64,000 nucleotides of DNA from GCF_056746865.1 NZ_CM163382.1, one strand, 5' to 3'; positions 37,407 to 53,513 are shown, counted from the stretch's first letter. Numbers and translations: made by a program. The notes: generated from the sequence alone by a model not told the origin.

Positions 37407-37425
37407 TAGCACCTCCTGAGCAGGC

Positions 37426-37462
37426 AATGGCCACCGTTTATCTAACAGTGGCCATTTGATTT
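37426..37462 (+). terminator. Candidate terminator after yhhT
   Basis: AATGGCCACCGTTTATCTAACAGTGGCCATT forms a perfect 9-bp stem, followed by TGATTTG. Confidence 0.45.
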
Positions 37463-37785
37463 GAGGAAATGAAGAAACATTATTCAGACAATTAATTTAT
37501 AAAAACCATTCCTTAAGTCAAATATATATAAACGCCGAATAGCGATTAAATCCTTCTCAAAGAATGCACTGATAACATTGTGTTATTTTTATTGCCTCAT
37601 TTTTCTCACTCACTTATAGTTGGTCCCCGCTGGCAGTAATTTAGTCATTTCAGAAATTTTTACTCTGATGTGCACTTACTGACTTATCTCACAAGTAATT
37701 TTTTCGCTAAATAAAGAATAGTGATGCCAGCAATTACAGTTAAATCTTGCTTTACTCGTAAAAACAATACTTTAATGGGGTTCTA

Positions 37786-38175
37786 ATGAGACATTACATG
37801 AAATGGTTTGCGGCTATTGCTGTTGTGGGTGCTTTAGCGGGTTGCGCGCGTACTGCGCCAATTGATCAGGTTCACTCAACCGTCAGCGCTGGTCATACCC
37901 AGGAACAAGTGAAAAAAGCGATTCTGAAAGCTGGCGTTGAACGCAAATGGATTATGTCCGAAGCCGGACAAGGCGTAATTAAAGCACGTCAACAGTCACG
38001 CGATCATTCAGCCGAAATTCGCATTAACTACACGGCATCCAGCTACGATATCAATTATGAAAATAGCCAGAACCTACAAGCGTCAGGCGGACAAATTCAT
38101 AAAAACTACAATCGCTGGGTCCGCAATCTCGACAAAGATATTCAACTGAATTTGTCAGCGGGCGCAGATTTATAA
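37786..38175 (+). CDS. Small lipoprotein, first gene of the accessory cluster
   Basis: 129-aa ORF with a lipobox (LAGC); follows ~330 bp of AT-rich sequence and may correspond to the first ape gene (position only). Confidence 0.55.
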   Translation: MRHYMKWFAAIAVVGALAGCARTAPIDQVHSTVSAGHTQEQVKKAILKAGVERKWIMSEAGQGVIKARQQSRDHSAEIRINYTASSYDINYENSQNLQASGGQIHKNYNRWVRNLDKDIQLNLSAGADL

Positions 38176-38234
38176 TTCTTCCTAAAGTCGGGCCGCTGCG
38201 GTCCGATAATAATTTAATTCCCTCTTAACAGGTT

Positions 38235-39302
38235 GTGCCCAACATGTACGAACAGGATTCTCTTAGCGCACTGGATGCGATTACCGAAGCTCAACGCATT
38301 GCCTTTGCCCCTATGCTTTTTCAAACAGCACTCTGCCTACGTAATGCGGGTGTACTTTCATATCTGGATCGGCAAGGCAAACATGGCGCAACGCTGGCTG
38401 ATATCACCGAACATAGCCATATCAACGAATATGCGGCCAGCGTTCTGTTAGATATGGGCTTAAGCGGGCGAATTATTACCTGTAAAGAGGGAATGTATTA
38501 CCTGGCGAAAATCGGTCATTACCTCCTGCATGACACTATGACTCGCGTGAATATGGATTTCACCCAGGATGTCTGTTACCAGGGGCTCTTCTTCCTCGCC
38601 GATTCACTCAATGAAGGAAAACCGTCCGGGTTAAAAGTATTTGGCGACTGGTCGACGATATATCCGGCACTTTCACAATTACCAGACGCCGCTCGTGAAA
38701 GCTGGTTTGCGTTTGATCATTACTATTCAGATGGCGCATTTAACGCCGCACTGCCTTATGTATTCGCCAACAACCCCACAACATTGTACGATGTAGGCGG
38801 CAATACGGGTAAGTGGGCTTTGCGTTGCTGCAAATACAATGAAAACATAGCCGTGACGTTATTAGATCTGCCACAACAAATCGTACTAGCGAAAGAAAAT
38901 ATCGCGAATGCAGGTTTTTCTGATCGCATAGATTTCCATGCGGTGGATATGCTAAGCGATGCCCCATTACCGGGCGAGGCTGATATCTGGTGGATGAGCC
39001 AATTTTTAGACTGTTTTTCACCCGAACAAATAATTAGCATACTCAGCAAAATCGCCAGCGTAATGAAGCCTGGCGCAAAAGTTTGCATCATGGAGTTGTT
39101 CTGGGATGCGCAGCGGTTTGAAGCAGCATCATTTAGCCTGAACGCGTCCTCACTTTATTTTACCTGCATGGCAAACGGTAACAGCCGTTTCTATAGTGCA
39201 GAGAAATTTTACGACTATCTGAATAAAGCAGGATTCCAGGTAGCAGAGCGCCACGATAATTTAGGCGTTGGGCATACACTTTTGATATGCCAAAAGAAAT
39301 AA
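38235..39302 (+). CDS. Class I SAM-dependent methyltransferase (ApeB-like)
   Basis: 355-aa ORF with a glycine-rich SAM-binding motif (LYDVGGNTGKWA) and an acidic-loop motif (LLDLPQ). Confidence 0.75.
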   Translation: MPNMYEQDSLSALDAITEAQRIAFAPMLFQTALCLRNAGVLSYLDRQGKHGATLADITEHSHINEYAASVLLDMGLSGRIITCKEGMYYLAKIGHYLLHDTMTRVNMDFTQDVCYQGLFFLADSLNEGKPSGLKVFGDWSTIYPALSQLPDAARESWFAFDHYYSDGAFNAALPYVFANNPTTLYDVGGNTGKWALRCCKYNENIAVTLLDLPQQIVLAKENIANAGFSDRIDFHAVDMLSDAPLPGEADIWWMSQFLDCFSPEQIISILSKIASVMKPGAKVCIMELFWDAQRFEAASFSLNASSLYFTCMANGNSRFYSAEKFYDYLNKAGFQVAERHDNLGVGHTLLICQKK

Positions 39303-39342
39303 TCGTCACTTAATAATTTTGGTTTACCGCGGGCGCGCGTTG

Positions 39343-40065
39343 ATGAAATTTACATTAAATATTACCGACTGGCAGGCACTGGCGCCTGGACTTAGCGAAG
39401 CGCAGCAATGGCAAGCATGGTCGCGCCAGCCGTGGGCGATTGACCCTGCCGCGCCGTTGGCAAAATTAAGTGAACTGCCAATGATGACCGCCCGCCGCCT
39501 TAGTTCAGGCAGCAAACTGGCTGTTGAATGCGGTCTGGCAATGCTACGCCGCCATCAGCCAGACGCCGTTTTGTATACCAGTCGTCATGGCGAACTGGAG
39601 CGCAATTACCGCATTGTTCATGCACTGGCAACCGAACAGGCGCTTTCTCCGACCGACTTCGCGCTCTCCGTACACAACTCTTCCGTGGGTAACCTGACCA
39701 TTGCGGCCAAACAGCCGATAGTTTCGTCATCGCTTTCTGCTGGTCGCGACACTTTCCAGCAAGGTTTGTGTGAAGTGCTTAGCCTGTTACAAGCGGGATA
39801 CCAGCGCGTGTTGATGGTCGATTTTGACGGTTTTCTGCCCGAGTTTTATCACCCACAACTGCCATCAGAAATGCCGACCTGGCCGTACGCCGTCGCGCTG
39901 GTGATTGAATCTGGCGATGACTGGCAATGTGAAACGCAGTCAGCCATTGCGGGCAATGAAACATCACTGCCGCAAAGCATGTTGTTTTTACAGCATTATT
40001 TACAAAATGCAGACGCATTTTCACTGCCTGGCGAGCGCGTGCAATGGCGCTGGAGCCGCAGATGA
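39343..40065 (+). CDS. Ketosynthase-like protein lacking the active-site Cys (chain-length-factor-like, ApeC-like)
   Basis: About 240 aa resembling the N-terminal half of a KS; the position equivalent to the catalytic Cys reads HNSS rather than CSSS. Confidence 0.65.
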   Translation: MKFTLNITDWQALAPGLSEAQQWQAWSRQPWAIDPAAPLAKLSELPMMTARRLSSGSKLAVECGLAMLRRHQPDAVLYTSRHGELERNYRIVHALATEQALSPTDFALSVHNSSVGNLTIAAKQPIVSSSLSAGRDTFQQGLCEVLSLLQAGYQRVLMVDFDGFLPEFYHPQLPSEMPTWPYAVALVIESGDDWQCETQSAIAGNETSLPQSMLFLQHYLQNADAFSLPGERVQWRWSRR

Positions 40066-40883
40066 GTAAGCTGATGTCACGTCTGGAGTGGACCTGGCGA
40101 CTGGTCATGACCGGGTTATGTTTTGCCCTGTTTGGTCTCGGCGGCCTGCTGCTTTCTGTCGTGTGGTTTAACATATTGTTAGTTTTGGTGTGGGATACTT
40201 CCCGCCGCCGTCGTTTGGCGCGTCGCAGCATTGCCGCCAGTTTTCGCCTGTTTTTAACTGTCGCGAAAGGGCTTGGCGTGCTGGATTATCGTATTGATGG
40301 CGCTGAAATTTTACGTCAGGAACGCGGTTGCCTCGTCGTAGCCAATCATCCCACGCTGATCGATTACGTGCTGCTGGCGTCAGTCATGCCAGAAACTGAC
40401 TGCCTGGTGAAAAGCGCGCTGTTAAAAAATCCTTTTCTTGGCGGCGTCGTGCGGGCGGCAGATTATTTAATCAACAGCGAAGCTGAAACCCTGTTACCCC
40501 GCTGCCAACAGCGACTGGCACAGGGTGACACTATCCTGATTTTCCCCGAAGGCACGCGAACGAAGCCCGGTGAAAAAATGACGCTGCAGCGCGGGGCGGC
40601 GAATATTGCCGTGCGCTGTGCCAGCGATTTACGCATCGTGACGATCGGCTGTAGCGAGCATCTGCTGGATAAACAAAGTAAATGGTATGACGTTCCACCT
40701 GACCGGCCGTTTTTTACGGTTGAAGTCCATGGTCGGGTTGAAATCAATAAATTTTACGATGCAACTTCACAAGAACCGGCGCTGGCAGCAAGGCAGTTAA
40801 ACCGGCATCTTTTGCTTCTATTACAACAAGGTTGTTTACCTCTCTCAGGAATAAATAATGCAAGCGCTTTATCTGGAAATTAA
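40062..40883 (+). CDS. Lysophospholipid (PlsC-family) acyltransferase (ApeD-like)
   Basis: HX4D acyltransferase motif (VANHPTLIDY) plus FPEGTR; N-terminal TM helix; ATGA overlap with the upstream gene. Confidence 0.75.
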   Translation: MSKLMSRLEWTWRLVMTGLCFALFGLGGLLLSVVWFNILLVLVWDTSRRRRLARRSIAASFRLFLTVAKGLGVLDYRIDGAEILRQERGCLVVANHPTLIDYVLLASVMPETDCLVKSALLKNPFLGGVVRAADYLINSEAETLLPRCQQRLAQGDTILIFPEGTRTKPGEKMTLQRGAANIAVRCASDLRIVTIGCSEHLLDKQSKWYDVPPDRPFFTVEVHGRVEINKFYDATSQEPALAARQLNRHLLLLLQQGCLPLSGINNASALSGN

Positions 40884-41115
40884 AAACCTCATCATCAGCA
40901 CCCTCAATCTGGACGAGTTGACTCCTGATGATATCGAGACCGATGCGCCGCTGTTCGGCGACGGTTTAGGACTGGATTCCATCGATGCCCTGGAACTGGG
41001 ACTGGCAGTAAAAAATGAGTACGGCGTGGTGCTCTCAGCCGAAAGCGAAGAGATGCGTCAGCACTTTTTCTCCGTCGCCACTCTGGCCTCTTTCATTGCT
41101 GCGCAACGCGCCTGA
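40858..41115 (+). CDS. Acyl carrier protein 1
   Basis: 85-aa acidic protein with the phosphopantetheine-attachment motif GLGLDSIDALEL. Confidence 0.85.
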   Translation: MQALYLEIKNLIISTLNLDELTPDDIETDAPLFGDGLGLDSIDALELGLAVKNEYGVVLSAESEEMRQHFFSVATLASFIAAQRA

Positions 41116-41126
41116 GGAAAGCCATC

Positions 41127-41378
41127 ATGACAGAACAACAAACCGTCTATCAGGAAGTCTCAGCCCTGCTGGTTAAGCTGTTTGAAATCGATCCGCAGGA
41201 CATCAAACCTGAAGCGCGCCTGTACGAAGATCTGGAACTGGACAGCATCGACGCCGTTGACATGATTGTGCACCTGCAAAAGAAAACCGGTAAGAAAATC
41301 AAGCCGGAAGAGTTTAAAGCAGTGCGCACAGTTCAGGATGTCGTAGAGGCTGTAGAACGCCTGCTACAAGAAGCCTGA
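41127..41378 (+). CDS. Acyl carrier protein 2
   Basis: 83-aa acidic protein with the motif DLELDSIDAVDM. Confidence 0.85.
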   Translation: MTEQQTVYQEVSALLVKLFEIDPQDIKPEARLYEDLELDSIDAVDMIVHLQKKTGKKIKPEEFKAVRTVQDVVEAVERLLQEA

Positions 41379-41382
41379 TCTG

Positions 41383-41964
41383 ATGTCGGGCATTCGCTCG
41401 CTACCGATGATTAAGCTGCTGACTGGATTATTGCTGCTCGCCTGGCCGTTTGTGATTTGGTTTGGCCTGGCGCATAACGGCCTGCACTGGTTGTTGCCGC
41501 TAATAGCGTTGCTGCTATTGTTGCGCCTGCGCCAGACCCGTCGCCGGGCGGGGCCGCTACAAGCCGTCACACAAATCGTCGCTGTCGTGGGCATCGCATT
41601 GTGTGTCGCCAGCTTTCTGTTGAAAACGCACCAGCTACTGCTGTTTTACCCGGTAGTGGTTAACGCGATCATGCTGGCGGTTTTTGGCGGTTCGCTGTGG
41701 TCGACAATGCCGATAGTTGAGCGGCTGGCACGTTTGCAGGAGCCAGACCTCCCGGAAAAGGGCGTGCGCTATACCCGCCGTGTCACGCAAATCTGGTGCG
41801 GCTTTTTCATCATTAACGGCGGAATTGCCCTCTTTACCGCGCTTTATGGCGATATGTCGTTATGGACCGCCTGGAACGGCATGATTGCTTATTTTTTGAT
41901 GGGAACGTTAATGGCAGGTGAATGGCTGGTGCGCCGTCAGGTGATAAAAAGAGATCGCTCATGA
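41383..41964 (+). CDS. Integral membrane protein of unknown function (ApeG-like)
   Basis: 193-aa ORF with about 4 hydrophobic helices. Confidence 0.6.
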   Translation: MSGIRSLPMIKLLTGLLLLAWPFVIWFGLAHNGLHWLLPLIALLLLLRLRQTRRRAGPLQAVTQIVAVVGIALCVASFLLKTHQLLLFYPVVVNAIMLAVFGGSLWSTMPIVERLARLQEPDLPEKGVRYTRRVTQIWCGFFIINGGIALFTALYGDMSLWTAWNGMIAYFLMGTLMAGEWLVRRQVIKRDRS

Positions 41965-43322
41965 AGCAGACCTTACCGCTTGCACGCTGGCTGACTGCGC
42001 CACGCCCTGATGACACGCCCATTGCGTGGCTGGACGAAAGCTCGTGGACACTGGGCGATTTGCGTCACGATGTCGCGCAACTTATCTGCCGCTTGCAGCA
42101 ACAGCCGGGTGAACGCTGGGCGCTGTGCTTTGAGAACAGTTATTTGTTTATCGTTGCCCTGCTTGCCACGCTACACGCCGGAAAAACGCCGGTGCTTCCG
42201 GGGCATAACCGTGTCATCCAGCTTAATGAACAACGTGAACTGTTCGATGGTGTACTTAGCGACAGCGATCTTAACTGGCAAGGTTCATTGCTGTTGGTAG
42301 CAAGTTCCCCACAAGTCGCGACACAATCATTCACCTTTGCCGCTATAGCGCCAGACGCTTATATCGAGCTATTTACCTCCGGTTCTACGGGGCAGCCAAA
42401 GCGGGTAATTAAACCTGTTCATTTGCTGGACCGTGAAGCAGAACTGCTGGCTGAACGATTAGGCGCACGTCTTGCCGGATGTCGTGTCGTCGGTTCCGTA
42501 TTGCCGCAGCATCTGTACGGCCTGACTTTTCGCGTTTTCCTGCCAATGGCGCTGGGATTACCGCTGCACGCCGCCATGCTCTGGTATGTCGAACAGTTTG
42601 CCGCATTGAGTCACCAGCATCGCTATATCTTCATCAGCAGCCCGGCATTTTTGAAACGGCTGGATACCCAGCTTTCTCCGCCGCCCGTTCAGGTGCTTCT
42701 CTCTGCTGGCGGTGAGCTGCCGTGGCAGGACGTAAAACACACCGCGAGCTGGCTGCGCGTCTGGCCTGATGAAATCTACGGCAGCACGGAAACCGGCGTC
42801 ATTGCCTGGCGTTACCGCGAACAAGAGCAACGCCGCTGGCTGCCCTTTCCAGGTATGCACTTCCAGGCCGAAGGTGAAGCATTTCGTCTCTTTTCACCGC
42901 TGATAGCGGAAGATAACGGCCTGTTACTCGATGATCTCTTGCAGTTTAGCCAGGACGGTCAGTTCCATCTGATGGGGCGTCGTGGGCGCATCGTTAAGAT
43001 TGAAGAAAAACGTATTTCTCTGCAGGAAGTAGAACAACGTCTGCTGGCGCTGGACGGCATTCGCGAGGCGGCGGCAGTTCCCGTTACGCGCGGCGGGCGT
43101 CAGAGCATCGGCGTTTTGCTGGTGCTGGATGACGAAGCTCGCCTGCAATGGCAGAACGGCGGCGGGCATAGCCAGGAAATGACCTGGCGGCGATTACTGC
43201 GCCCGACGCTGGAGCCAGTTGCTATTCCGCGTTACTGGCGCGTTATTGATGAAATGCCAGTAAACAGTATGAACAAGCGTGTCTATGCGCAATTACAGGA
43301 GTTATTTCATGAAGCCCCATGA
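41961..43322 (+). CDS. Acyl-CoA/acyl-ACP synthetase (adenylate-forming ligase, ApeH-like)
   Basis: AMP-binding motif YIELFTSGSTGQPKRV; ATG at 41961 overlaps the upstream stop. Confidence 0.8.
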   Translation: MKQTLPLARWLTAPRPDDTPIAWLDESSWTLGDLRHDVAQLICRLQQQPGERWALCFENSYLFIVALLATLHAGKTPVLPGHNRVIQLNEQRELFDGVLSDSDLNWQGSLLLVASSPQVATQSFTFAAIAPDAYIELFTSGSTGQPKRVIKPVHLLDREAELLAERLGARLAGCRVVGSVLPQHLYGLTFRVFLPMALGLPLHAAMLWYVEQFAALSHQHRYIFISSPAFLKRLDTQLSPPPVQVLLSAGGELPWQDVKHTASWLRVWPDEIYGSTETGVIAWRYREQEQRRWLPFPGMHFQAEGEAFRLFSPLIAEDNGLLLDDLLQFSQDGQFHLMGRRGRIVKIEEKRISLQEVEQRLLALDGIREAAAVPVTRGGRQSIGVLLVLDDEARLQWQNGGGHSQEMTWRRLLRPTLEPVAIPRYWRVIDEMPVNSMNKRVYAQLQELFHEAP

Positions 43323-43662
43323 AATCGAGCGCCATCAGGCACAAGCGAATCACCTTGAGATTGTTTTGCATCTCAGGGCAGATCTGTTCTGGTTTCGCGG
43401 CCATTTTGCCGTGCAGCCGTTACTCCCAGGAGTTGCACAAATCGACTGGGCGATGAGCTACGCGCTCACTCTGCTCGCGCCTGGCTGGCGTTTTCACTCT
43501 ATTCAGAACATCAAATTCCAGTCCCCGTTGCTGCCGGACAACCGCGTCACGCTCACGCTTAACTGGCAGGAAGAACGCCAGATTCTGAGCTTTAGCTATC
43601 AGCGTCACGACGGTGACGCCCGCCACACCGCCAGTAGCGGGAAGATCCGCCTATGTCGGTAA
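43309..43662 (+). CDS. Hotdog-fold 3-hydroxyacyl-ACP dehydratase (FabZ/FabA-like)
   Basis: About 117 aa with FRGHFAVQPLLPGVAQID, a typical dehydratase motif. Confidence 0.7.
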   Translation: MKPHEIERHQAQANHLEIVLHLRADLFWFRGHFAVQPLLPGVAQIDWAMSYALTLLAPGWRFHSIQNIKFQSPLLPDNRVTLTLNWQEERQILSFSYQRHDGDARHTASSGKIRLCR

Positions 43663-45329
43663 ACTTTTCTCCCTGCGTGTTGATCCCCTGCTACAACCAC
43701 GGCGCGATGATGCCGGGCGTGCTGGCGCGTCTTAAGCCATTTAATCTGCCCTGTATTGTAGTGGATGACGGCAGCGATGCCGCCACGCAACAGCAACTGG
43801 ATAATCTGGTTGCCGAACAGCCTGGCGTGACCTTAATTCGCCTGGCAGAAAACGCAGGCAAAGGCGCGGCAGTGATGCGTGGCTTACAGGCAGCGGCAGA
43901 CGCGGGCTTCAGCCATGCGGTGCAGGTGGATGCTGACGGTCAGCACGCGATTGAAGACATCCCTAAACTGCTGGCACTCGCTGAACAGCAGCCTGCGGCG
44001 CTGATCTCCGGCCAGCCGATTTACGATGACTCCATCCCCCGCTCACGGCTGTACGGGCGCTGGGTCACCCACGTGTGGGTATGGATCGAAACGCTCTCCC
44101 TGCAACTGAAAGACAGTATGTGCGGCTTTCGCGTTTATCCGGTTGCGCCAACGCTGCAACTGGCAAAATACGCTACCATCGGCAAGCGGATGGATTTTGA
44201 CACCGAAGTGATGGTGCGCCTCTACTGGCAGGGAAATACCAGTTATTTCGTGCCGACCCGCGTCACCTATCCGCTGGACGGGCTTTCGCATTTTGATGCC
44301 CTGAAAGATAACGTCCGCATCTCGCTGATGCACACACGTCTGTTTTTCGGCATGTTGCCGCGTATTCCTTCACTGCTGATGCGCCACTCTTCCAGCCACT
44401 GGGCGCGGCAGAGCGAAGTGAAAGGGTTATGGGGAATGCGCCTGATGCTGCTGGTCTGGCGTCTGCTGGGAAGAACTGCGTTTACCGCGCTGCTTTACCC
44501 GGTGGTGGGCGTCTACTGGCTCACCGCTGCTCGTGCACGTAAAGCGTCGCAAGACTGGCTCGCCCGTGTGCGCCAACAACAACCACAGGCAGCAAAACTC
44601 AACAGCTATCAGCATTTTCTACGTTTCGGCAACGCCATGCTCGACAAAATCGCCAGCTGGCGCGGCGAGCTGCAACTCGGGCGTGATGTGCTGTTTGCAC
44701 CAGGCGCAGAAGCGGCACTTAACGTCAGCGATCCGCGCGGCAAATTGCTGCTGGCCTCGCATCTTGGCGATGTGGAAGTGTGCCGGGCGCTGGCAAAAAT
44801 TCAGGGCTACAAAACCATTAACGCGCTGGTGTTTAGCGAAAACGCCCAACGCTTTAAACAGATAATGCAGGAGATGGCCCCGCAGGCAGGCATCAACCTG
44901 CTCCCGGTAACAGATATCGGCCCGGAAACCGCCATCCTGCTGAAAGAGAAGCTGGATAACGGCGAATGGGTGGCGATTGTCGGTGACCGCATCGCCGTCA
45001 ACCCGCAACGCGGCGGCGACTGGCGCGTCTGCTGGAGTCCGTTTATGGGCCAGCCTGCGCCTTTCCCACAGGGGCCGTTTATTCTTGCGTCTATTTTGCG
45101 CTGCCCGGTGAATCTGATTTTCGCCCTGCGCCAGCACGGCAAGCTGCATATTCACTGCGAAACCTTTGCCGACCCGCTGCTGTTGCCGCGTGGCGAACGC
45201 CAGCAGGCGCTGCAAAACGCTATCGATCATTACGCCGCGCGTCTGGAACATTACGCGCTCCAGTCGCCCCTCGACTGGTTTAATTTTTTCGATTTCTGGC
45301 AACTGCCGGAAGTCCAGGACAAGGAGTAA
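43653..45329 (+). CDS. Bifunctional protein: N-terminal GT2 glycosyltransferase fused to a C-terminal LpxL/HtrB-like lipid acyltransferase domain (ApeJ-like)
   Basis: 558-aa ORF; N-terminus CVLIPCYNHG...VVDDGSDA (GT-A fold); C-terminal half has LASHLGDVEV and IVGDR motifs resembling lipid A late acyltransferases. Confidence 0.7.
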   Translation: MSVNFSPCVLIPCYNHGAMMPGVLARLKPFNLPCIVVDDGSDAATQQQLDNLVAEQPGVTLIRLAENAGKGAAVMRGLQAAADAGFSHAVQVDADGQHAIEDIPKLLALAEQQPAALISGQPIYDDSIPRSRLYGRWVTHVWVWIETLSLQLKDSMCGFRVYPVAPTLQLAKYATIGKRMDFDTEVMVRLYWQGNTSYFVPTRVTYPLDGLSHFDALKDNVRISLMHTRLFFGMLPRIPSLLMRHSSSHWARQSEVKGLWGMRLMLLVWRLLGRTAFTALLYPVVGVYWLTAARARKASQDWLARVRQQQPQAAKLNSYQHFLRFGNAMLDKIASWRGELQLGRDVLFAPGAEAALNVSDPRGKLLLASHLGDVEVCRALAKIQGYKTINALVFSENAQRFKQIMQEMAPQAGINLLPVTDIGPETAILLKEKLDNGEWVAIVGDRIAVNPQRGGDWRVCWSPFMGQPAPFPQGPFILASILRCPVNLIFALRQHGKLHIHCETFADPLLLPRGERQQALQNAIDHYAARLEHYALQSPLDWFNFFDFWQLPEVQDKE

Positions 45330-45332
45330 AGG

Positions 45333-45755
45333 GTGCTTAACGATCCCCGATTTACCGCTGAAGTCGAGCTGACCATTCCCTTTCACGACGTCGATATGAT
45401 GGGCGTGGCCTGGCACGGTAACTATTTTCGCTACTTTGAAGTGGCCCGCGAGGCGCTGCTCAACCAGTTCAATTACGGCTATCGGCAGATGAAAGAGTCC
45501 GGTTATTTGTGGCCAGTGGTCGATGCGCGGGTGAAATATCGCCACGCCCTCACCTTTGAGCAACGCATCCGCGTGCGTGCACATATCGAAGAGTTCGAAA
45601 ACCGTCTGCGGATTGGCTATCAGATTTTCGATGCCGAAACGGGCAAACGCGCCACCACCGGATACACCATTCAGGTCGCGGTCGACGAGCAAAGCCGCGA
45701 ACTGTGCTTTGTCAGCCCCGATATTTTGTTTGAACGCATGGGAGTCAAACCATGA
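45333..45755 (+). CDS. 4HBT/YbgC-like hotdog thioesterase
   Basis: 140-aa ORF with a GTG start and the motif FHDVDMMGVAWHGNYFRYFE. Confidence 0.75.
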   Translation: MLNDPRFTAEVELTIPFHDVDMMGVAWHGNYFRYFEVAREALLNQFNYGYRQMKESGYLWPVVDARVKYRHALTFEQRIRVRAHIEEFENRLRIGYQIFDAETGKRATTGYTIQVAVDEQSRELCFVSPDILFERMGVKP

Positions 45756-46357
45756 AATTTTTACCACTGCTGGCGCTGCTGATTAGCCCGTTTGTGAGCG
45801 CCCTGAACCTGGACGATCTTCAGCAACGCTTTACCGAACAGCCGGTGATCCGCGCTCATTTCGATCAAACCCGGACGATTAAAGATCTGCCGCAGCCGCT
45901 ACGATCTCAGGGCCAGATGTTGATCGCCCGCGACCAGGGGCTGTTGTGGGATCAAACCTCACCATTTCCCATGCAACTATTGCTGGACGATAAACGCATG
46001 GTGCAGGTGATCAACGGTCAGCCGCCGCAAATCATCACGGCAGAAAATAACCCGCAGATGTTCCAGTTTAACCACCTGCTGCGCGCGCTGTTCCAGGCCG
46101 ATCGCAAAGTGCTGGAACAAAATTTCCGCGTCGAATTTGCTGACAAAGGCGAAGGCCGCTGGACACTGCGCCTGACGCCGACCACCACGCCGCTGGATAA
46201 AATTTTCAACACCATCGATCTCGCCGGGCAAACCTATCTGGAGAGCATTCAGCTTAATGATAAACAGGGCGATCGCACCGATATCGCTCTTACCCAACAT
46301 CAACTGACGCCAGCGCAACTGACCGATGACGAACGCCAACGTTTTGCCGCCCAGTAA
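45752..46357 (+). CDS. LolA-like outer-membrane lipoprotein carrier protein
   Basis: 201-aa ORF with a signal peptide (MKFLPLLALLISPFVSA); LolA-like length and composition. Confidence 0.65.
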   Translation: MKFLPLLALLISPFVSALNLDDLQQRFTEQPVIRAHFDQTRTIKDLPQPLRSQGQMLIARDQGLLWDQTSPFPMQLLLDDKRMVQVINGQPPQIITAENNPQMFQFNHLLRALFQADRKVLEQNFRVEFADKGEGRWTLRLTPTTTPLDKIFNTIDLAGQTYLESIQLNDKQGDRTDIALTQHQLTPAQLTDDERQRFAAQ

Positions 46358-48644
46358 ACGCCCGGCGCTGTTATGGGGGATCGTCTGCCTGGTCATGGCG
46401 GCGGCGTTGCTGATCCTGTTGCCGCAATCACGACTGAACAGTAGCGTGCTGGCTATGTTACCCAAACAGGCGATGGGCGATATTCCTCCAGCGCTGAATG
46501 ACGGCTTTATGCAGCGTCTGGACCGCCAACTGGTGTGGCTGGTCAGCCCCGGTAAAGAGGCTAATCCCAGGGTGGCTCAGGAGTGGCTGACGCTGCTGCA
46601 AAAATCCGCTGCGCTCGGCGACGTTAAAGGGCCAATGGATGCCGCCAGCCAGCAGGCGTGGGGAGCGTTTTTCTGGCAGCACCGCAACGGCCTGGTTGAC
46701 CCCGACACCCGCGCGCGCCTGCAAAACGGCGGCGAAGCGCAGGCGCAGTGGATCCTCTCCCAGCTTTATTCTGCGTTCTCCGGGGTAAGCGGTAAGGAGC
46801 TGCAAAACGATCCGCTGATGTTAATGCGTGGCTCGCAGCTGGCGATGGCGAAAAACGGCCAGCGTTTGCGGCTGATGGACGGCTGGCTGGTGACGCAGGA
46901 TCCCCAGGGCAACTACTGGTATCTGCTGCACGGCGAACTGGCGGGATCGTCGTTTGATATGCAGCAAACCCACCAGCTCATCACGACCCTGAATACGCTG
47001 GAAAAGGATCTGAAAACGCGTTACCCGCAGGCGCAGTTGCTCTCGCGCGGCACGGTGTTTTACAGCGATTACGCCAGCCAACAGGCGAAGCAGGATATCT
47101 CCAACCTGGGCGTGGCAACGCTGCTGGGGGTGATATTACTGATTGTGGCGGTGTTCCGCTCTTTACGCCCATTGCTGCTTTGCGTGATTTCCATCGGCAT
47201 CGGCGCGCTGGCGGGAACGGTCGCCACCTTGTTGATTTTCGGCGAATTACACCTGATGACGCTGGTGATGAGCATGAGCGTTATCGGCATTTCCGCTGAC
47301 TACACGCTCTATTACCTCACCGAGCGGATGGTGCACGGCAATGACGTTTCGCCGTGGCAAAGCCTGGCGAAAGTGCGCAATGCCCTGCTGCTGGCGCTGC
47401 TCACCACCGTGGCGGCGTATCTGATTATGATGCTCGCCCCCTTCCCCGGCATTCGCCAGATGGCGATTTTTGCCGCCGTCGGGTTGAGCGCCTCCTGTCT
47501 GACCGTCCTGTTCTGGCATCCGTGGCTGTGCCGTGGCCTGCCGGTGCGTCCGGTTCCGGCGATGGCGCTGATGCTGCGCTGGCTGGCTGCGTGGCGGCGT
47601 AATAAAAAACTGTCGCTGGGTCTGCCCGTCGCGCTGGCGCTGTTTTCGCTGGCGGGGATGTCAATGCTGCGCGTCGACGACGATATCTCGCAGTTACAGG
47701 CGCTACCGCAGCATATTCTGGCCCAGGAGAAAGCCATTACCGCCCTGACCGGACAAAGCGTCGATCAAAAATGGTTTGTAGTTTACGGCGACTCTCCACA
47801 GCAAACATTGCGGCGGCTGGAGAAATTTACCGCCTCGCTGGAGAATGCGAAAAAAGAGGGGCTTATCAGCAACTACCGCACCATTCCGCTGAACTCCCTG
47901 GCGCGGCAGGAGGAAGATTTACATCTGCTGAAAACGGCTGCCCCGACAGTAACAAAAGCACTGCAAAATGCCGGGCTGGCGGCAGTGAATCCGGATCTCA
48001 ACGCCATGCCAGTGAAGGTCGATGAATGGCTGGCAAGCCCCGCCAGTGAAGGCTGGCGTCTGCTGTGGCTGACGCTGAAAAACGGCGAAAGCGGCGTACT
48101 GGTGCCGGTTGAAGGGGTTAAAAGTAGCGCGTTGTTGCAGGAAATCGCCAGCGATTACCCTGGCGGCATTGCCTGGGTTGATCGCAAAAGCACCTTTGAT
48201 GAGTTGTTCGCACTTTACCGCTACGTCTTAACCGGTTTGTTGCTGGTGGCGCTGGCGGTGATTGCCTGCGGCGCAGTGGCCCGCCTCGGCTGGCGCAAAG
48301 GGCTTATCAGCCTGGTGCCTTCGGTACTTTCGCTGGGCTGCGGTCTGGCAGTGCTGGCGATGAGCGGGCAGGCGGTGAATCTCTTTTCGCTACTGGCGCT
48401 GGTGCTGGTGCTTGGCATCGGCATCAATTACACGCTGTTTTTCAGTAATCCGCGCGGTACACCGTTAACTTCCCTACTGGCGATCACGCTGGCAATGCTC
48501 ACCACCTTGCTGGCGCTGGGAATGCTGGTATTCAGCGCCACCCAGGCCATCAGCAGTTTTGGCATTGTGCTGGTGAGCGGTATTTTCACCGCCTTCCTGC
48601 TTTCGCCGCTGGCTATGCCCGATAAAAAGAGAACAAAAAAATGA
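46326..48644 (+). CDS. MMPL/RND-superfamily exporter (start codon uncertain)
   Basis: 772-aa ORF with two blocks of about 6 TM helices separated by soluble domains. Confidence 0.75.
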   Translation: MTNANVLPPSKRPALLWGIVCLVMAAALLILLPQSRLNSSVLAMLPKQAMGDIPPALNDGFMQRLDRQLVWLVSPGKEANPRVAQEWLTLLQKSAALGDVKGPMDAASQQAWGAFFWQHRNGLVDPDTRARLQNGGEAQAQWILSQLYSAFSGVSGKELQNDPLMLMRGSQLAMAKNGQRLRLMDGWLVTQDPQGNYWYLLHGELAGSSFDMQQTHQLITTLNTLEKDLKTRYPQAQLLSRGTVFYSDYASQQAKQDISNLGVATLLGVILLIVAVFRSLRPLLLCVISIGIGALAGTVATLLIFGELHLMTLVMSMSVIGISADYTLYYLTERMVHGNDVSPWQSLAKVRNALLLALLTTVAAYLIMMLAPFPGIRQMAIFAAVGLSASCLTVLFWHPWLCRGLPVRPVPAMALMLRWLAAWRRNKKLSLGLPVALALFSLAGMSMLRVDDDISQLQALPQHILAQEKAITALTGQSVDQKWFVVYGDSPQQTLRRLEKFTASLENAKKEGLISNYRTIPLNSLARQEEDLHLLKTAAPTVTKALQNAGLAAVNPDLNAMPVKVDEWLASPASEGWRLLWLTLKNGESGVLVPVEGVKSSALLQEIASDYPGGIAWVDRKSTFDELFALYRYVLTGLLLVALAVIACGAVARLGWRKGLISLVPSVLSLGCGLAVLAMSGQAVNLFSLLALVLVLGIGINYTLFFSNPRGTPLTSLLAITLAMLTTLLALGMLVFSATQAISSFGIVLVSGIFTAFLLSPLAMPDKKRTKK

Positions 48645-49225
48645 TCAAACCCACATTCTGGCGAGCGTTCGCCCTGACCGCTACGCTTATCCTCACCGGC
48701 TGTAGCCACTCGCAACCGGAACAGGAAGGTCGCCCACAGGCGTGGCTGCAACCTGGCACGCGCATCACGCTGCCGGCACCAGGGATTTCGCCCGCCGTTA
48801 ATTCCCAGCAACTATTGAGCGGCAGCTTCAACGGCAAAACCCAGTCTCTGCTAGTGATGCTTAACGCCGACGACCAGAAAATCACCCTTGCCGGGCTGTC
48901 GTCGGTCGGCATTCGTCTGTTTCTGGTGACCTACGATGCGCAAGGGCTACGCGCCGAGCAATCCATCGTCGTCCCACAGTTGCCGCCCGCAAGTCAGGTG
49001 CTGGCTGACGTGATGCTTAGCCACTGGCCGATTAGCGCCTGGCAACCGCAACTCCCCGCTGGATGGACGCTTCGCGACAACGGTGACAAACGCGAACTGC
49101 GTAACGCCAGCGGCAAACTGGTCACGGAAATCACCTATCTGAATCGCCAGGGAAAACGCGTGCCAATCAGCATTGAACAGCATGTCTTTAAATACCACAT
49201 CACCATTCAATATTTAGGTGACTGA
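48641..49225 (+). CDS. Lipoprotein (DUF3261-like, possibly LolB-like)
   Basis: 194-aa ORF with a lipobox (LTGC). Confidence 0.65.
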   Translation: MIKPTFWRAFALTATLILTGCSHSQPEQEGRPQAWLQPGTRITLPAPGISPAVNSQQLLSGSFNGKTQSLLVMLNADDQKITLAGLSSVGIRLFLVTYDAQGLRAEQSIVVPQLPPASQVLADVMLSHWPISAWQPQLPAGWTLRDNGDKRELRNASGKLVTEITYLNRQGKRVPISIEQHVFKYHITIQYLGD

Positions 49226-50396
49226 TATGATTTACATTTCCGCCGTCGGCATGATCAACGCCCTGGGAAATAACCTTGACGATATCGCAGCCAACCTGAC
49301 TCGCGGTGTCGCTCCCGGCATGCGCCCGCGCGCAGGCTGGTTGCAGGGGCATCCGCAGGCGGTCCTGGCTGGCGTGGATGGCGAGCTTCCGGTTATCCCG
49401 GAAAAATTCGCTGCGCACCGCTCGCGCAACAATCAGATCCTGCTGGCGGCGCTGGCGCAGATCCAGCCGCAGGTTGATGACGCTATTGCGAAATATGGCC
49501 GCGAGCGCATCGCGATTGTGCTTGGCACCAGCACCTCCGGCCTGCATGAAGGCGACACGCACGTTAACCTGCGCACCCACGGGCAGCCGAGCACCACGTG
49601 GCACTATGCACAACAAGAGCTCGGCGATCCGTCGCGTTTTCTCAGCCACTGGCTGGCGCTCGACGGCCCAGCTTATACCCTTTCAACCGCCTGCTCCTCC
49701 AGTGCCAGAGCGATGATCAGCGGGCGCAGGCTTATCGAGGCGGGGCTGGTCGATGCCGCCATTGTGGGTGGTGCAGACACCCTGAGCCGAATGCCGATTA
49801 ACGGTTTTCACAGCCTCGAATCGCTCTCGCCAACCTTATGTCAGCCGTTTGGTCGTGACCGCGCGGGCATCACCATTGGCGAAGGTGCGGGGCTGATGCT
49901 GTTGACCCGCGAACCGCAGCCCATCGCCTTGCTGGGCGTCGGTGAATCGAGCGACGCTTATCATATTTCGGCCCCGCATCCACAGGGCGAAGGCGCAATT
50001 CGCGCCATTAACCAGGCGCTGGCTGATGCGCAGCTTACGCCGGATGAGGTGGGCTATATCAACCTGCACGGCACCGCCACACAACTCAACGACCAGATTG
50101 AATCGATGGTGGTAAACGCCCTGTTTGGCGAACGCGTACCGTGCAGCTCCACCAAACATTTGACCGGACACACGCTGGGCGCAGCGGGCATTACCGAAGC
50201 GGCAATCAGTATGTTGATCTTAGAGCGTGATTTACCGCTGCCCGCTCAGGACTTCAGCCTGTCGCCGCGCGATCCCACGCTGCCACCGTGCGGCATTATC
50301 GAACAACCACAGCCGCTGGCACGTCCGGTGATCCTGTCCAATTCCTTCGCCTTTGGCGGCAATAACGCCAGCATTCTGCTCGGGAGGGTTTCGTGA
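49218..50396 (+). CDS. Beta-ketoacyl-ACP synthase (KS, ApeO-like)
   Basis: Active-site Cys (LSTACSSSARAM), HGTAT, and NSFAFGGNNASIL. Confidence 0.85.
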   Translation: MTDMIYISAVGMINALGNNLDDIAANLTRGVAPGMRPRAGWLQGHPQAVLAGVDGELPVIPEKFAAHRSRNNQILLAALAQIQPQVDDAIAKYGRERIAIVLGTSTSGLHEGDTHVNLRTHGQPSTTWHYAQQELGDPSRFLSHWLALDGPAYTLSTACSSSARAMISGRRLIEAGLVDAAIVGGADTLSRMPINGFHSLESLSPTLCQPFGRDRAGITIGEGAGLMLLTREPQPIALLGVGESSDAYHISAPHPQGEGAIRAINQALADAQLTPDEVGYINLHGTATQLNDQIESMVVNALFGERVPCSSTKHLTGHTLGAAGITEAAISMLILERDLPLPAQDFSLSPRDPTLPPCGIIEQPQPLARPVILSNSFAFGGNNASILLGRVS

Positions 50397-50857
50397 GCCA
50401 CTATTTATCCCCCGGCGCTTATCTGCCCCACGACGCGCCCATGTTACTGCTGGAAGAAGTGGTGAGCGTCAGCGATGACAGCGCGGTGTGCCGTGTAACG
50501 GTCTCGCCCAGTGGCGTACTGGCACCGTTTCTCGACCCGGACGGCAATCTCCCTGGCTGGTTTGCCCTTGAATTGATGGCGCAAACCGTCGGCGTCTGGT
50601 CTGGCTGGCATCGCCACCAGCAGGGCAAAAACAGTATTGAGTTAGGGATGGTACTGGGCGCACGTGAATTGCTTTGCGCCGCTGGCATTCTGCCCGCAGG
50701 CCAGACGCTGACCATTACCGTCAAACTCCTGATGCAAGACGATCGCTTCGGCAGTTTTGAGTGCAGCATCAACAACGGCACGGCAACGGGCCGCATTAAC
50801 ACCTTCCAGCCGACCGCGGAAGAACTTACCACCCTGTTTCAACAAGGAGCGTCCTGA
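50393..50857 (+). CDS. Hotdog-fold dehydratase (FabA/FabZ-like, ApeP-like)
   Basis: 154-aa ORF overlapping the neighbouring genes; hotdog-like length and motif spacing. Confidence 0.6.
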   Translation: MSHYLSPGAYLPHDAPMLLLEEVVSVSDDSAVCRVTVSPSGVLAPFLDPDGNLPGWFALELMAQTVGVWSGWHRHQQGKNSIELGMVLGARELLCAAGILPAGQTLTITVKLLMQDDRFGSFECSINNGTATGRINTFQPTAEELTTLFQQGAS

Positions 50858-51588
50858 TGAGTCGTTCAGTTCTGGTTACTGGTGCCAGCAAAGGCATTGG
50901 TCGCGCCATCGCCTGCCAACTGGCGGCAGACGGCTTTAATATTGGCGTTCACTATCACCGTGACGCCACAGGCGCTCAGGAAACGCTAAATGCCATTGTC
51001 GCCAACGGGGGTAACGGGCGTTTGCTCAGTTTCGACGTCGCAAACCGCGAACAGTGTCGGGAAGTGCTGGAGCACGAAATCGCGCAAAACGGTGCCTGGT
51101 ACGGCGTGGTTAGTAACGCCGGGATCGCCCGCGATGCCGCTTTTCCGGCTTTAAGCGATGACGACTGGGATGCGGTGATCCACACCAATCTCGACAGTTT
51201 CTACAACGTTATTCAGCCGTGCATTATGCCGATGATCGGCACACGCCAGGGTGGACGCATCATCACGCTGTCCTCGGTTTCCGGCGTGATGGGCAATCGC
51301 GGACAGGTGAACTACAGCGCTGCCAAAGCCGGAATTATCGGCGCAACAAAAGCACTGGCTATCGAACTCGCGAAGCGCAAAATCACCGTCAACTGCATCG
51401 CGCCGGGGCTTATTGATACCGGGATGATCGAAATGGAAGAGAGCGCCCTGAAAGAGGCAATGTCGATGATCCCCATGAAACGCATGGGCCAGGCGGAAGA
51501 AGTTGCCGGGCTTGCCAGCTATTTAATGTCTGATATTGCGGGTTACGTCACCCGCCAGGTTATTTCCATCAACGGAGGGATGTTATGA
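50857..51588 (+). CDS. 3-oxoacyl-ACP reductase (SDR, FabG-like)
   Basis: VLVTGASKGIGRAIA Rossmann motif and YSAAKAG catalytic motif. Confidence 0.88.
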   Translation: MSRSVLVTGASKGIGRAIACQLAADGFNIGVHYHRDATGAQETLNAIVANGGNGRLLSFDVANREQCREVLEHEIAQNGAWYGVVSNAGIARDAAFPALSDDDWDAVIHTNLDSFYNVIQPCIMPMIGTRQGGRIITLSSVSGVMGNRGQVNYSAAKAGIIGATKALAIELAKRKITVNCIAPGLIDTGMIEMEESALKEAMSMIPMKRMGQAEEVAGLASYLMSDIAGYVTRQVISINGGML

Positions 51589-52814
51589 CACGTCGCGTAG
51601 TGATTACAGGAATGGGCGGCGTGACTGCCTTTGGTGAAAACTGGCAGGACGTTTCCGCGCGTCTGCTGGCGTATGAGAATGCAGTGCGCAAAATGCCGGA
51701 GTGGCAGGTCTACGATGGTCTGCACACCCTGCTTGGCGCGCCTGTTGATGATTTCACGCTACCGGAGCACTACACCCGCAAGCGTATCCGTGCGATGGGC
51801 CGCGTGTCGCAAATGTCGACCCGTGCCAGCGAGCTGGCGTTAGAGCAGGCAGGATTGATTGGCGATCCGATATTAACCAGCGGCGAAACGGGCATTGCGT
51901 ACGGTTCATCGACCGGCAGTACCGGTCCGGTGAGCGAATTTGCCACCATGCTGACGGAAAAGCACACCAATAACATCACCGGCACCACCTATGTACAGAT
52001 GATGCCGCACACCACCGCCGTTAATACCGGTCTGTTTTTCGGCCTGCGCGGGCGGGTGATCCCGACCTCCAGCGCCTGTACCTCCGGCAGCCAGGCGATC
52101 GGTTATGCGTGGGAAGCCATTCGCCACGGTTATCAAACGGTGATGGTTGCTGGTGGTGCCGAAGAGTTATGCCCTTCAGAAGCAGCGGTATTTGATACAC
52201 TTTTCGCCACCAGCCAGCACAATGATGCGCCGAAAACCACACCTTCACCGTTCGATGAAAACCGCGACGGGCTGGTGATTGGTGAAGGCGCAGGTACGCT
52301 GATTCTTGAAGAACTGGAGCACGCCAAAGCGCGCGGCGCGACCATTTACGGTGAAATCGTCGGCTTTGCGACTAACTGCGACGCGGCACATATTACCCAG
52401 CCTCAGCGTGAGACCATGCAATATTGTATGGAAAAATCGTTAAAAATCGCCGGGTTAAGTGCAAGTGATATCGGCTATATTTCGGCGCATGGTACGGCGA
52501 CCGATCGTGGTGATATGGCAGAAAGTCTGGCGACAGCAACCATTTACGGTGATAATGTGCCGCTCTCCTCGCTGAAAAGTTATTTTGGTCATACGCTTGG
52601 TGCCTGTGGCGCGCTCGAAGCCTGGATGAGTCTGCAAATGATGCGCGAAGGTTGGTTTGCGCCTACGCTAAACCTGAATAAACCAGACCCGAACTGTGGC
52701 GCGCTGGATTACATCATGCATGAAGCCCGCAAGGTTGATTGTGAGTTTTTGCAGAGTAACAACTTTGCCTTTGGCGGCATTAATACATCCATCATCATTA
52801 AACGTTGGCCCTGA
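51585..52814 (+). CDS. Beta-ketoacyl-ACP synthase (KS, ApeR-like)
   Basis: Active-site Cys (SSACTSGSQAIG), HGTAT and GHTLGACG. Confidence 0.88.
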   Translation: MTRRVVITGMGGVTAFGENWQDVSARLLAYENAVRKMPEWQVYDGLHTLLGAPVDDFTLPEHYTRKRIRAMGRVSQMSTRASELALEQAGLIGDPILTSGETGIAYGSSTGSTGPVSEFATMLTEKHTNNITGTTYVQMMPHTTAVNTGLFFGLRGRVIPTSSACTSGSQAIGYAWEAIRHGYQTVMVAGGAEELCPSEAAVFDTLFATSQHNDAPKTTPSPFDENRDGLVIGEGAGTLILEELEHAKARGATIYGEIVGFATNCDAAHITQPQRETMQYCMEKSLKIAGLSASDIGYISAHGTATDRGDMAESLATATIYGDNVPLSSLKSYFGHTLGACGALEAWMSLQMMREGWFAPTLNLNKPDPNCGALDYIMHEARKVDCEFLQSNNFAFGGINTSIIIKRWP

Positions 52815-52815
52815 T

Positions 52816-53403
52816 ATGTATCGGATAGTTCTGGGGAAAGTTTCGACCTTAAGCGCAGCTCCACTGCCACCGGCTTTACGCGATCAAGCACCGCAAGGTC
52901 CACGACGCGAACGCTGGCTGGCGGGGCGTGCATTACTTTCGCACACGCTTTCCCCGCTACCGGAGATCATCTATGGCGAACAAGGCAAACCGGCATTCGC
53001 GCCGGAAACGCCGCTATGGTTCAACTTAAGCCATAGCGGTGACGATATCGCCCTGCTGTTGAGCGATGAAGGCGAAGTCGGCTGCGATATCGAAGTGATT
53101 CGCCCGCGCGCCAACTGGCGCTGGCTGGCGAACGCCGTGTTCAGCCTCGGGGAACACGCTGAGATGGACGCCGTGCATCCCGATCAGCAACTGGAAATGT
53201 TCTGGCGCATCTGGACGCGCAAAGAAGCCATCGTTAAACAGCGTGGCGGCAGCGCCTGGCAAATCGTCAGCGTAGACAGCACCTATCACTCATCACTGTC
53301 AGTCAGCCATTGTCAGCTAGAAAATTTAAGCCTGGCGATCTGCACCCCTACCCCCTTTACGCTCTCCGCCGACAGTGTGCAATGGATCGATTCAGTTAAC
53401 TGA
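52816..53403 (+). CDS. acpT: 4'-phosphopantetheinyl transferase (holo-ACP synthase 2)
   Basis: Internal start MYRIVLGKVSTLSAAPLPPALRD gives 195 aa; the ATG lies 1 bp after the stop of the upstream KS gene. Confidence 0.88.
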   Translation: MYRIVLGKVSTLSAAPLPPALRDQAPQGPRRERWLAGRALLSHTLSPLPEIIYGEQGKPAFAPETPLWFNLSHSGDDIALLLSDEGEVGCDIEVIRPRANWRWLANAVFSLGEHAEMDAVHPDQQLEMFWRIWTRKEAIVKQRGGSAWQIVSVDSTYHSSLSVSHCQLENLSLAICTPTPFTLSADSVQWIDSVN

Positions 53404-53448
53404 TCCGCCCACCCGACTGCCCATCTATTGATCCAGAACAGGTAATCA

Positions 53449-53476
53449 GTATGACGAATACTTAAAATCGTCATAC
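53449..53476 (+). promoter_or_regulatory. NikR operator in the nikA promoter
   Basis: GTATGA-N16-TCATAC dyad, 38 bp upstream of the nikA ATG. Confidence 0.85.
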
Positions 53477-53513
53477 TTATTTCCGCCATCTATTTTAATC
53501 CATTGGGGTTACC

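Follow-up and report, generated by a model that had tools for sequence, protein, structure and literature searches.

A window of 64,000 nucleotides from NZ_CM163382.1 (assembly GCF_056746865.1) carries, at positions 43653-49225, five genes that by their sequence are apeJ, apeK, apeL, apeM and apeN of the aryl polyene (APE) pigment cluster known from Escherichia coli. All coordinates given here are those of the whole stretch, and open reading frames (ORFs) were taken from a longest-ORF reading together with the RefSeq annotation of the syntenic region of E. coli 042. On the + strand, apeJ (43653..45329) encodes a 558-residue 'glycosyltransferase family 2 protein' (RefSeq WP_000115628.1), in which an N-terminal family 2 glycosyltransferase (GT2) domain of the DPMS/ArnC/PpgS type (residues 1-244, 43653..44384) would be joined to an LpxL/LpxM/PatA-like acyltransferase domain (residues 247-558, 44391..45326). 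It is followed on the same strand by the GTG-initiated apeK (45333..45755, 140 residues), encoding a YbgC/4HBT-type acyl thioesterase annotated as 'acyl-CoA thioesterase' (WP_000930891.1); by apeL (45752..46357, 201 residues; RefSeq LolA family), encoding a predicted secreted carrier of LolA fold; by apeM (46326..48644, 772 residues; RefSeq MMPL family transporter), encoding a predicted RND/MMPL-type inner-membrane transporter resembling HAE3 and HpnN; and by apeN (48641..49225, 194 residues; RefSeq DUF3261), encoding a DUF3261 lipoprotein of predicted LolB-like fold. The original prediction, made from the DNA alone, had read this region as one whose product is anchored to a lipid and exported to the outer membrane; its ORFs all lie where it had drawn them, on the + strand, and only the apeK thioesterase had gone unmentioned. 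We consider it likely that ApeJ to ApeN attach the aryl polyene to a sugar-phospholipid and deliver it to the outer membrane.

The N-terminal half of ApeJ matches Pfam PF00535 (GT2) over residues 8-130 with an E value of 9.2e-20, and carries the acidic motifs D38-D39 and D93-A-D95. Its best NCBIfam match is PpgS, a polyprenyl-phospho-N-acetylgalactosamine (GalNAc) synthase (1.5e-14), while the best sequence matches in the PDB are an archaeal dolichol-phosphate mannose synthase (DPMS; 5mlz, 5.6e-7) and ArnC (9hwj, 5.7e-4). The equivalog scores are 54 bits for PpgS (cut-off 370) and 25 bits for ArnC (cut-off 529), and ApeJ is a relative of these enzyme families and not a member of them. These nearest characterised relatives all put a sugar onto a lipid-linked phosphate. 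In Xenorhabdus doucetiae the APE lipid is reported to be built on glycerol-phosphate-GalNAc, the polyene being ester-linked to the sugar, and an apeJ mutant accumulates an acylated, phosphatidic-acid-like glycerol-phosphate intermediate (bioRxiv 10.1101/2020.12.19.423268). The kinship of the GT2 domain fits both this product and this intermediate, and the attachment of the polyene to a glycolipid or phospholipid, as originally predicted, has in Xenorhabdus the form of an ester to a GalNAc-phosphate-glycerol lipid.

The C-terminal half of ApeJ has more than 1100 homologues. An S-H-L-G-x-x-E motif is present in which H370 and E375 are invariant across 23 aligned homologues, the codons of this putative catalytic H-x4-E dyad (H370-L-G-D-V-E375) lying at 44760..44777 on the + strand. 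Five of the 23, from Aeromonas, Grimontia and others and 46-50% identical to the ApeJ domain, match PF03279 (Lip_A_acyltrans), the best at 7e-10; in homologue P0109 the match extends over residues 166-364, covers positions 100-287 of the 295 in the model and takes in the aligned His195. An AlphaFold2 (AF2) model of ApeJ residues 240-558 (predicted local distance difference test score, pLDDT, 80.9; predicted template modelling score, pTM, 0.82) was compared with the PDB by Foldseek. Fourteen hits had E<=0.001, every one of them a chain of PatA from mycobacteria or of LpxM from Acinetobacter (E 1e-10 to 2e-9, probability 1.00, TM-score 0.55-0.71, 14-17% identity), the next match following at E 2.7e-3. 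The title of PDB entry 5knk describes LpxM with a 'catalytic residue substitution (E127A)'. In the model the domain begins with a long helix that is probably membrane-associated. Predicted fold, motif and transitive homology together confirm the C-terminal half as a putative acyltransferase of the LpxL/LpxM/PatA type. Acyltransferase homology is thus present in this domain, with structural matches at E ~1e-10 and PF03279-matching homologues, and the fusion of a GT2 domain with an LpxL/HtrB-like acyltransferase domain that had been proposed for the 558-residue protein is borne out at both ends.

PatA is the mycobacterial phosphatidylinositol-mannoside 6-O-acyltransferase, which acylates the 6-hydroxyl of mannose, and LpxM and LpxL are the secondary acyltransferases of lipid A. 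ApeJ shares with them the fold, the catalytic-type H-x4-E motif and the membrane-associated N-terminal helix, but differs in that its domain is joined to a GT2 partner, has no match to the Pfam model and is only distantly similar in sequence. Furthermore, the predicted donor of ApeJ is the aryl polyene bound to an acyl carrier protein (ACP), whereas PatA and LpxM use saturated acyl-CoA or acyl-ACP. By analogy, the PatA reaction would be of the same kind as the transfer of a polyene to the sugar in a glycophospholipid. The fused arrangement of ApeJ is not universal. In a related metagenomic cluster (L004, 6470-8192), a glycosyltransferase of 249 residues and an acyltransferase of 326 residues are encoded at the same cluster position by separate genes overlapping by 8 nucleotides, and align to ApeJ residues 5-244 and 247-553 respectively. 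Hence, E. coli ApeJ is a gene fusion with its boundary near residue 245. Evidence for acyl transfer by ApeJ is at present genetic and comes from apeJ deletions in other strains (PMC8253772; bioRxiv 10.1101/2020.12.19.423268).

That the fold of the C-terminal domain matches LpxM, and that homologues of ApeJ match the Pfam family 'lipid A biosynthesis acyltransferase', would also suit a quite different anchor, namely lipid A or a lipid A-like glycolipid. The polyene would then become a secondary acyl chain, put in place by the LpxL-like domain of ApeJ, and the product would be exported to the surface by the lipopolysaccharide pathway rather than by ApeL, ApeM and ApeN. Lipid A was raised as a possible anchor by Johnston et al. 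(PMC8253772). Nevertheless, PatA, which acylates the sugar of a glycerophospholipid, fits the fold as well as or better than LpxM; the product solved in Xenorhabdus is a glycerol-phosphate-GalNAc lipid and not lipid A (bioRxiv 10.1101/2020.12.19.423268); and the fused GT2 domain is of the type that places sugar onto lipid phosphate. An anchor of lipid A would, in addition, leave a dedicated RND/LolA/LolB-like trio unexplained, and we regard it as very improbable.

The trio itself, which had been described as a periplasmic LolA-like carrier, an MMPL exporter and a lipoprotein, is present as predicted. ApeL matches the Pfam families LolA (PF03548, 2e-11) and LolA_3 (PF19574, 3e-11) and begins with a signal peptide, MKFLPLLALLISPFVSA, a hydrophobic N-terminus ending in VSA. 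Its score against the NCBIfam model LolA2_flexi is 55 bits (6.5e-15), the cut-off of that family being 125. In the PDB it is related to the LolA-family protein 8t5j (1e-22), with 9coz and 9cwl also matched, whereas the one canonical LolA that was hit, from Xanthomonas (8orn), is much more distant at 0.0066. No paper was found for 8t5j, 9coz or 9cwl, and the crystal structure is apparently unpublished.

ApeM matches Pfam MMPL (PF03176, 6.3e-8), the NCBIfam models HAE3 (TIGR00921, 1.7e-13) and HpnN (3.2e-13), and the HpnN structure 5khn in the PDB (9e-7). A simple hydropathy scan, set against the 12 transmembrane segments of the RND type, gives about 11 hydrophobic segments arranged 1+5 / 1+4, the large loops falling at residues 33-257 and 448-633, and an internal repeat is weakly detectable (E 0.002) that aligns transmembrane segment (TM) 4 with TM10. 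The former contains the sequence SADYTLYY with D325-Y326 (47296-47301), conserved in the metagenomic cluster, and the latter GINYTLFF with N701-Y702 (48424-48429), conserved in three other sequences. In MmpL3 the proton relay is formed by Asp-Tyr pairs, and D325-Y326 of ApeM resembles this relay, the second half having Asn for Asp; a role in proton coupling may be inferred. RND proteins are known to export hopanoid (HpnN) or mycolate (MmpL3), and ApeM, whose topology may be of the RND type, has HpnN and the HAE3 family as its best characterised sequence relatives; each of these exporters presumably brings a specialised lipid closer to the outer membrane. The homology of ApeM to HpnN is, however, weak and limited to TM2-6, its TM10 has Asn-Tyr rather than Asp-Tyr, and, unlike HpnN and MmpL3, it has dedicated partners of LolA and LolB fold.

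ApeN matches DUF3261 (8e-39) and has a lipobox, the cysteine of which is kept without exception across 65 diverse homologues. LolB is the best fold match to the ApeN model. By an established rule, serine at position +2 predicts sorting of a lipoprotein to the outer membrane, and the serine at +2 of ApeN predicts, on sequence, such a location.

These features liken the trio to the Lol pathway, through the LolA Pfam domains and signal peptide of ApeL and through the LolB-like model of the lipoprotein ApeN. The resemblance is limited to the carrier in the periplasm and the acceptor at the outer membrane. At the inner membrane the Lol pathway uses the ABC transporter LolCDE, whereas ApeM is of the RND/MMPL type, and the cargo of Lol is lipoprotein whereas the presumed cargo of the Ape proteins is a glycolipid. 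ApeM, ApeL and ApeN may, by analogy, form a self-contained route in which a proton-driven RND pump replaces LolCDE and a glycophospholipid is carried; this stands as a proposal in print, and we hold the balance for and against it to be even.

A Lol-like carrier and acceptor could also be imagined to act on proteins. In such a scheme ApeL and ApeN would sort the lipoproteins of the cluster (ApeA and ApeN), or ApeA bearing the polyene as its lipid anchor, rather than the pigment lipid. Both ApeA and ApeN do have lipoboxes, and the idea is mentioned by Johnston et al. (PMC8253772) and by De Smet et al. (PMC11885536). Yet deletion of apeA is reported to leave near wild-type pigmentation (PMC8253772), and the product isolated from Xenorhabdus is a free lipid (bioRxiv 10.1101/2020.12.19.423268). 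Moreover, E. coli already possesses LolABCDE for its lipoproteins, and the trio includes a homologue of the RND lipid exporter HpnN rather than an ABC transporter like LolCDE. Lipoprotein sorting is, on this evidence, a very unlikely function for the trio.

The export genes are tightly packed among the biosynthetic ones. Junctions measure -10 nucleotides for apeI/apeJ, +3 for apeJ/apeK, -4 for apeK/apeL, -32 for apeL/apeM, -4 for apeM/apeN and +1 for apeN/apeO, continuing after apeO through acpT at -4, -1, -4 and +1; the range from apeC to acpT is -32 to +11. With the trio set in this manner between the thioesterase and a ketosynthase, no room is left for independent signals around apeL, apeM and apeN. 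The order of GT2, acyltransferase, thioesterase, LolA, MMPL, DUF3261 and ketosynthase genes is kept in the metagenomic cluster, whose proteins are 38-59% identical, and a DUF3261 gene of only 27% identity still stands directly 5' of genes for a ketosynthase and for a dehydratase like ApeP; two further distant DUF3261 representatives lie on contigs too short for gene context. The ape block as a whole also travels as one unit, being found at two E. coli chromosomal sites.

These same observations bear on whether ApeL, ApeM and ApeN might belong to an efflux or housekeeping operon of unrelated function that happens to adjoin the biosynthetic genes. Nothing was found in favour of such an arrangement, apart from a weak promoter-like match at 48559-48586 inside apeM in a scan whose match counts were not above those of shuffled sequence. 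Conversely, the export genes overlap their neighbours and have genes of polyketide synthase (PKS) type on both sides, they move with the block between the two chromosomal sites, and their linkage persists both in the cluster of 38-59% protein identity and, for the DUF3261 gene, at 27%. An unrelated operon is thus exceedingly improbable and effectively refuted already; the separate export operon against which the original prediction had to be weighed is not what the locus contains.

The five genes belong to an 18-gene co-oriented cluster, apeA-apeR (37798..52814, + strand), as annotated by RefSeq in the syntenic region of strain 042. Its first half encodes, in order, a lipoprotein, a methyltransferase, a chain-length factor, ApeD, two ACPs, the membrane protein ApeG, the adenylating AMP-binding enzyme ApeH and the dehydratase ApeI; apeJ-apeN then follow, with the ketosynthase ApeO, the dehydratase ApeP, the ketoreductase ApeQ and the ketosynthase ApeR completing the second half. 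The APE core set is therein complete according to the 042 annotation, which the ORFs of the window match, with two ketosynthases and a chain-length factor, two ACPs, ApeI and ApeP, a ketoreductase, an adenylating enzyme and ApeM. The PlsC-like acyltransferase that had been noticed elsewhere in the cluster proves to be apeD (40062..40883, + strand; RefSeq 'lysophospholipid acyltransferase family protein'). Its protein matches TIGR00530 at 3.6e-15 (55.9 bits, under the 103-bit cut-off), carries the H-x4-D motif NHPTLID in translation and has one N-terminal transmembrane segment, and its orthologue in the metagenomic cluster has PF01553. ApeK matches NCBIfam TIGR00051 (1.3e-16), and CFT073 carries the identical accession WP_000930891.1. 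One nucleotide 3' of apeR lies acpT (52816..53403, + strand; RefSeq), encoding a 4'-phosphopantetheinyl transferase that probably activates the two ACPs of the cluster, a link that we presume from gene adjacency. The cluster is flanked upstream by yhhT and downstream by acpT and then nikABCDE.

Several smaller observations attach to this arrangement. The longest-ORF and RefSeq start sites differ for apeD (40044/40062), apeH (41922/41961), apeI (43279/43309) and apeO (49218/49227), the RefSeq starts giving tighter junctions. A 382-residue ORF at 44619-45767 on the - strand, antisense to apeJ and apeK and unannotated in RefSeq, probably arises as a mere shadow of GC-rich coding sequence. The 391-bp gap between yhhT and apeA (37407-37797) is the sole sizeable non-coding stretch upstream of the cluster and contains a single sigma-70-like match, TTGCCT-17-TATAGT, at 37592-37620. 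Published work describes the ape cluster as having no dedicated regulator and as being induced by oxidative stress.

Within E. coli the locus is both common and uniform. The 5573 bases of apeJ-apeN are 100% identical to those of strain 042 and of many other strains, the window as compared with 042 shows 8 nucleotide differences across 17 kb, and 825 of the 5426 complete genomes of the species carry the apeJ-apeN block, chromosomal in every case. The window shares with strain 042 and O157:H7 a cluster site flanked by yhhT on one side and acpT-nikA on the other. CFT073 (coordinates 1143727-1158748) and clone D i14 have the cluster instead in an integrase-bearing island by hemagglutinin/contact-dependent-inhibition (CDI) gene remnants, where it lacks an adjacent phosphopantetheinyl transferase. 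Between the two chromosomal sites ApeJ-ApeN and ApeD are 96-100% identical, and a distant-mode blastn search of the E. coli collection recovered no ape copy under 90% identity, one cluster thus occupying both sites. In strain P393-F10 (NZ_CP076274.1, 3380263-3381409) only 34% of the apeJ-apeM query is matched, and a cdiA-o11 CDI toxin gene is listed there together with LolA, thioesterase and DUF3261 genes; this locus looks like a truncated or rearranged ape copy.

The cluster of CFT073 is the closest of the studied relatives. Its genes c1194-c1190 correspond to apeJ-apeN in the same order and with the same lengths (Cimermancic 2014; PMC8253772), at protein identities of 98.2% for ApeJ (c1194), 100% for ApeK, 98.5% for ApeL, 96.5% for ApeM and 96.4% for ApeN, and the published predicted functions and export model agree with what we find in the window (PMC8253772). 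In CFT073, deletion of apeD or apeJ is reported to yield late intermediates, and deletion of apeM to abolish APE metabolites (PMC8253772). A yellow aryl polyene pigment has been shown for both CFT073 and Xenorhabdus (PMC8253772; bioRxiv 10.1101/2020.12.19.423268). The cluster of X. doucetiae, with the gene names apeB-R, is described by its authors as highly similar to that of CFT073, and they assign to ApeJ both GalNAc transfer and polyene acylation and propose ApeL, ApeM and ApeN as the export route (bioRxiv 10.1101/2020.12.19.423268); it differs in belonging to another genus and in that the product structure was solved there. More remotely, the flexirubin cluster of Flavobacterium johnsoniae, an aryl-polyene-type pigment cluster, contains the LolA/LolB paralogues LolA2 and LolB2, for which pigment transport is an explicit hypothesis (De Smet et al. 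2025; PMC11885536), although this is another phylum and ApeL scores under the cut-off of the LolA2_flexi family. The metagenomic cluster has the Pfam families of the APE core, including ApeI-like and ApeP-like proteins. An ACPS-type phosphopantetheinyl transferase, in the position of acpT, and a DUF2141 gene lie there 3' of the last ketosynthase.

From these elements a stepwise pathway can be proposed for the attachment of the polyene to a sugar-phospholipid and its delivery to the outer membrane. As shown in the literature, PKS-like enzymes assemble a 4-hydroxyphenyl polyene on an ACP. ApeD, judged by its homology and by the intermediates reported for mutants, would acylate a lyso-glycerophospholipid, to the phosphate of which the GT2 domain of ApeJ would add GalNAc. 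The C-terminal domain of ApeJ, with H370-x4-E375, would then esterify the polyene from the ACP onto the 6-hydroxyl of the sugar, and the thioesterase ApeK may help in release or editing. ApeM, which has the Asp-Tyr pair in TM4, would draw on the proton gradient to take the finished lipid out of the inner membrane; ApeL, of LolA fold, would shield the lipid as it crosses the periplasm; and ApeN, as a lipoprotein of LolB fold, would receive it and insert it into the outer membrane. The biosynthetic steps are supported by genetics and product structures reported in close relatives. The steps of transport by ApeM, ApeL and ApeN are proposed from folds, signal sequences and gene linkage.

A number of observations weigh against this proposal. 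Full-length ApeJ matches Pfam for GT2 only, with no PF03279 match at E<=10; residues 240-558 alone give no Pfam match even at E<=10; and a phmmer search of the C-terminal domain against PDB sequences returned only chance DARPin/ankyrin matches (E>=0.049). The domain search suggested with the original prediction therefore recovered the GT2 half of the protein and missed the acyltransferase half, and in the lack of a direct Pfam match the acyltransferase domain had to be assigned through homologues, motif and fold. ApeL scores 60.4 bits against the housekeeping LolA equivalog TIGR00547, below the cut-off of 112, and is a specialised LolA paralogue rather than the housekeeping LolA. ApeN has no sequence match to LolB, being without an NCBIfam hit and matching DUF3261 only in Pfam. 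Given these two results, the Lol analogy is drawn from fold. The scan of 37000-54000 returned 13 promoter-like sites (10.6 +/- 3.4 in shuffled sequence) and 28 terminator-like sites (21.1 +/- 4.9 in shuffled sequence); it is uninformative on operon structure and silent either way, and the operon was therefore judged from gene overlaps and synteny. DPMS-type GT2 enzymes, PpgS and ArnC included, invert the anomeric centre and would give a beta-sugar-1-phosphate. The Xenorhabdus APE lipid, however, is reported to contain alpha-GalNAc-1-phosphate, with J(H1,H2) = 2.8 Hz (bioRxiv 10.1101/2020.12.19.423268), an anomeric linkage that mismatches an inverting, DPMS-like GT2 domain and leaves the exact chemistry of GalNAc transfer uncertain. 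Finally, clean deletions of apeL and apeN were not obtained in CFT073, such that the pigment-less phenotype may be polar, and Johnston et al. give the structure of the lipid anchor as unsolved for E. coli (PMC8253772).

The interpretation reached from the DNA alone is correct, but it is a rediscovery of what is already known for a near-identical cluster. The model that Johnston et al. 2021 draw in their Figure 8 and take up in their discussion (PMC8253772), like that of Grammbitter et al. 2020 (bioRxiv 10.1101/2020.12.19.423268), agrees almost point for point, and our reading, in reproducing it, adds little new knowledge. In the available parts of the published accounts we did not find the PatA/LpxM-like C-terminal domain of ApeJ with its invariant H-x4-E, the resemblance of the ApeN model to LolB, the separate genes that show ApeJ to be a fusion, the Asp-Tyr pair of ApeM, or the mismatch between an alpha-linked product and an inverting enzyme.

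The wider relevance of the system lies in its distribution and in the protection that it provides. Aryl polyene clusters are reported to be among the most widespread biosynthetic gene clusters of Gram-negative bacteria, and APE lipids to protect pathogens, among them uropathogenic and enteroaggregative E. coli, against oxidative stress and to affect biofilm formation. If true, the transport of a glycolipid by proteins of LolA and LolB fold together with an RND pump would be a new way of bringing lipids to the outer membrane.

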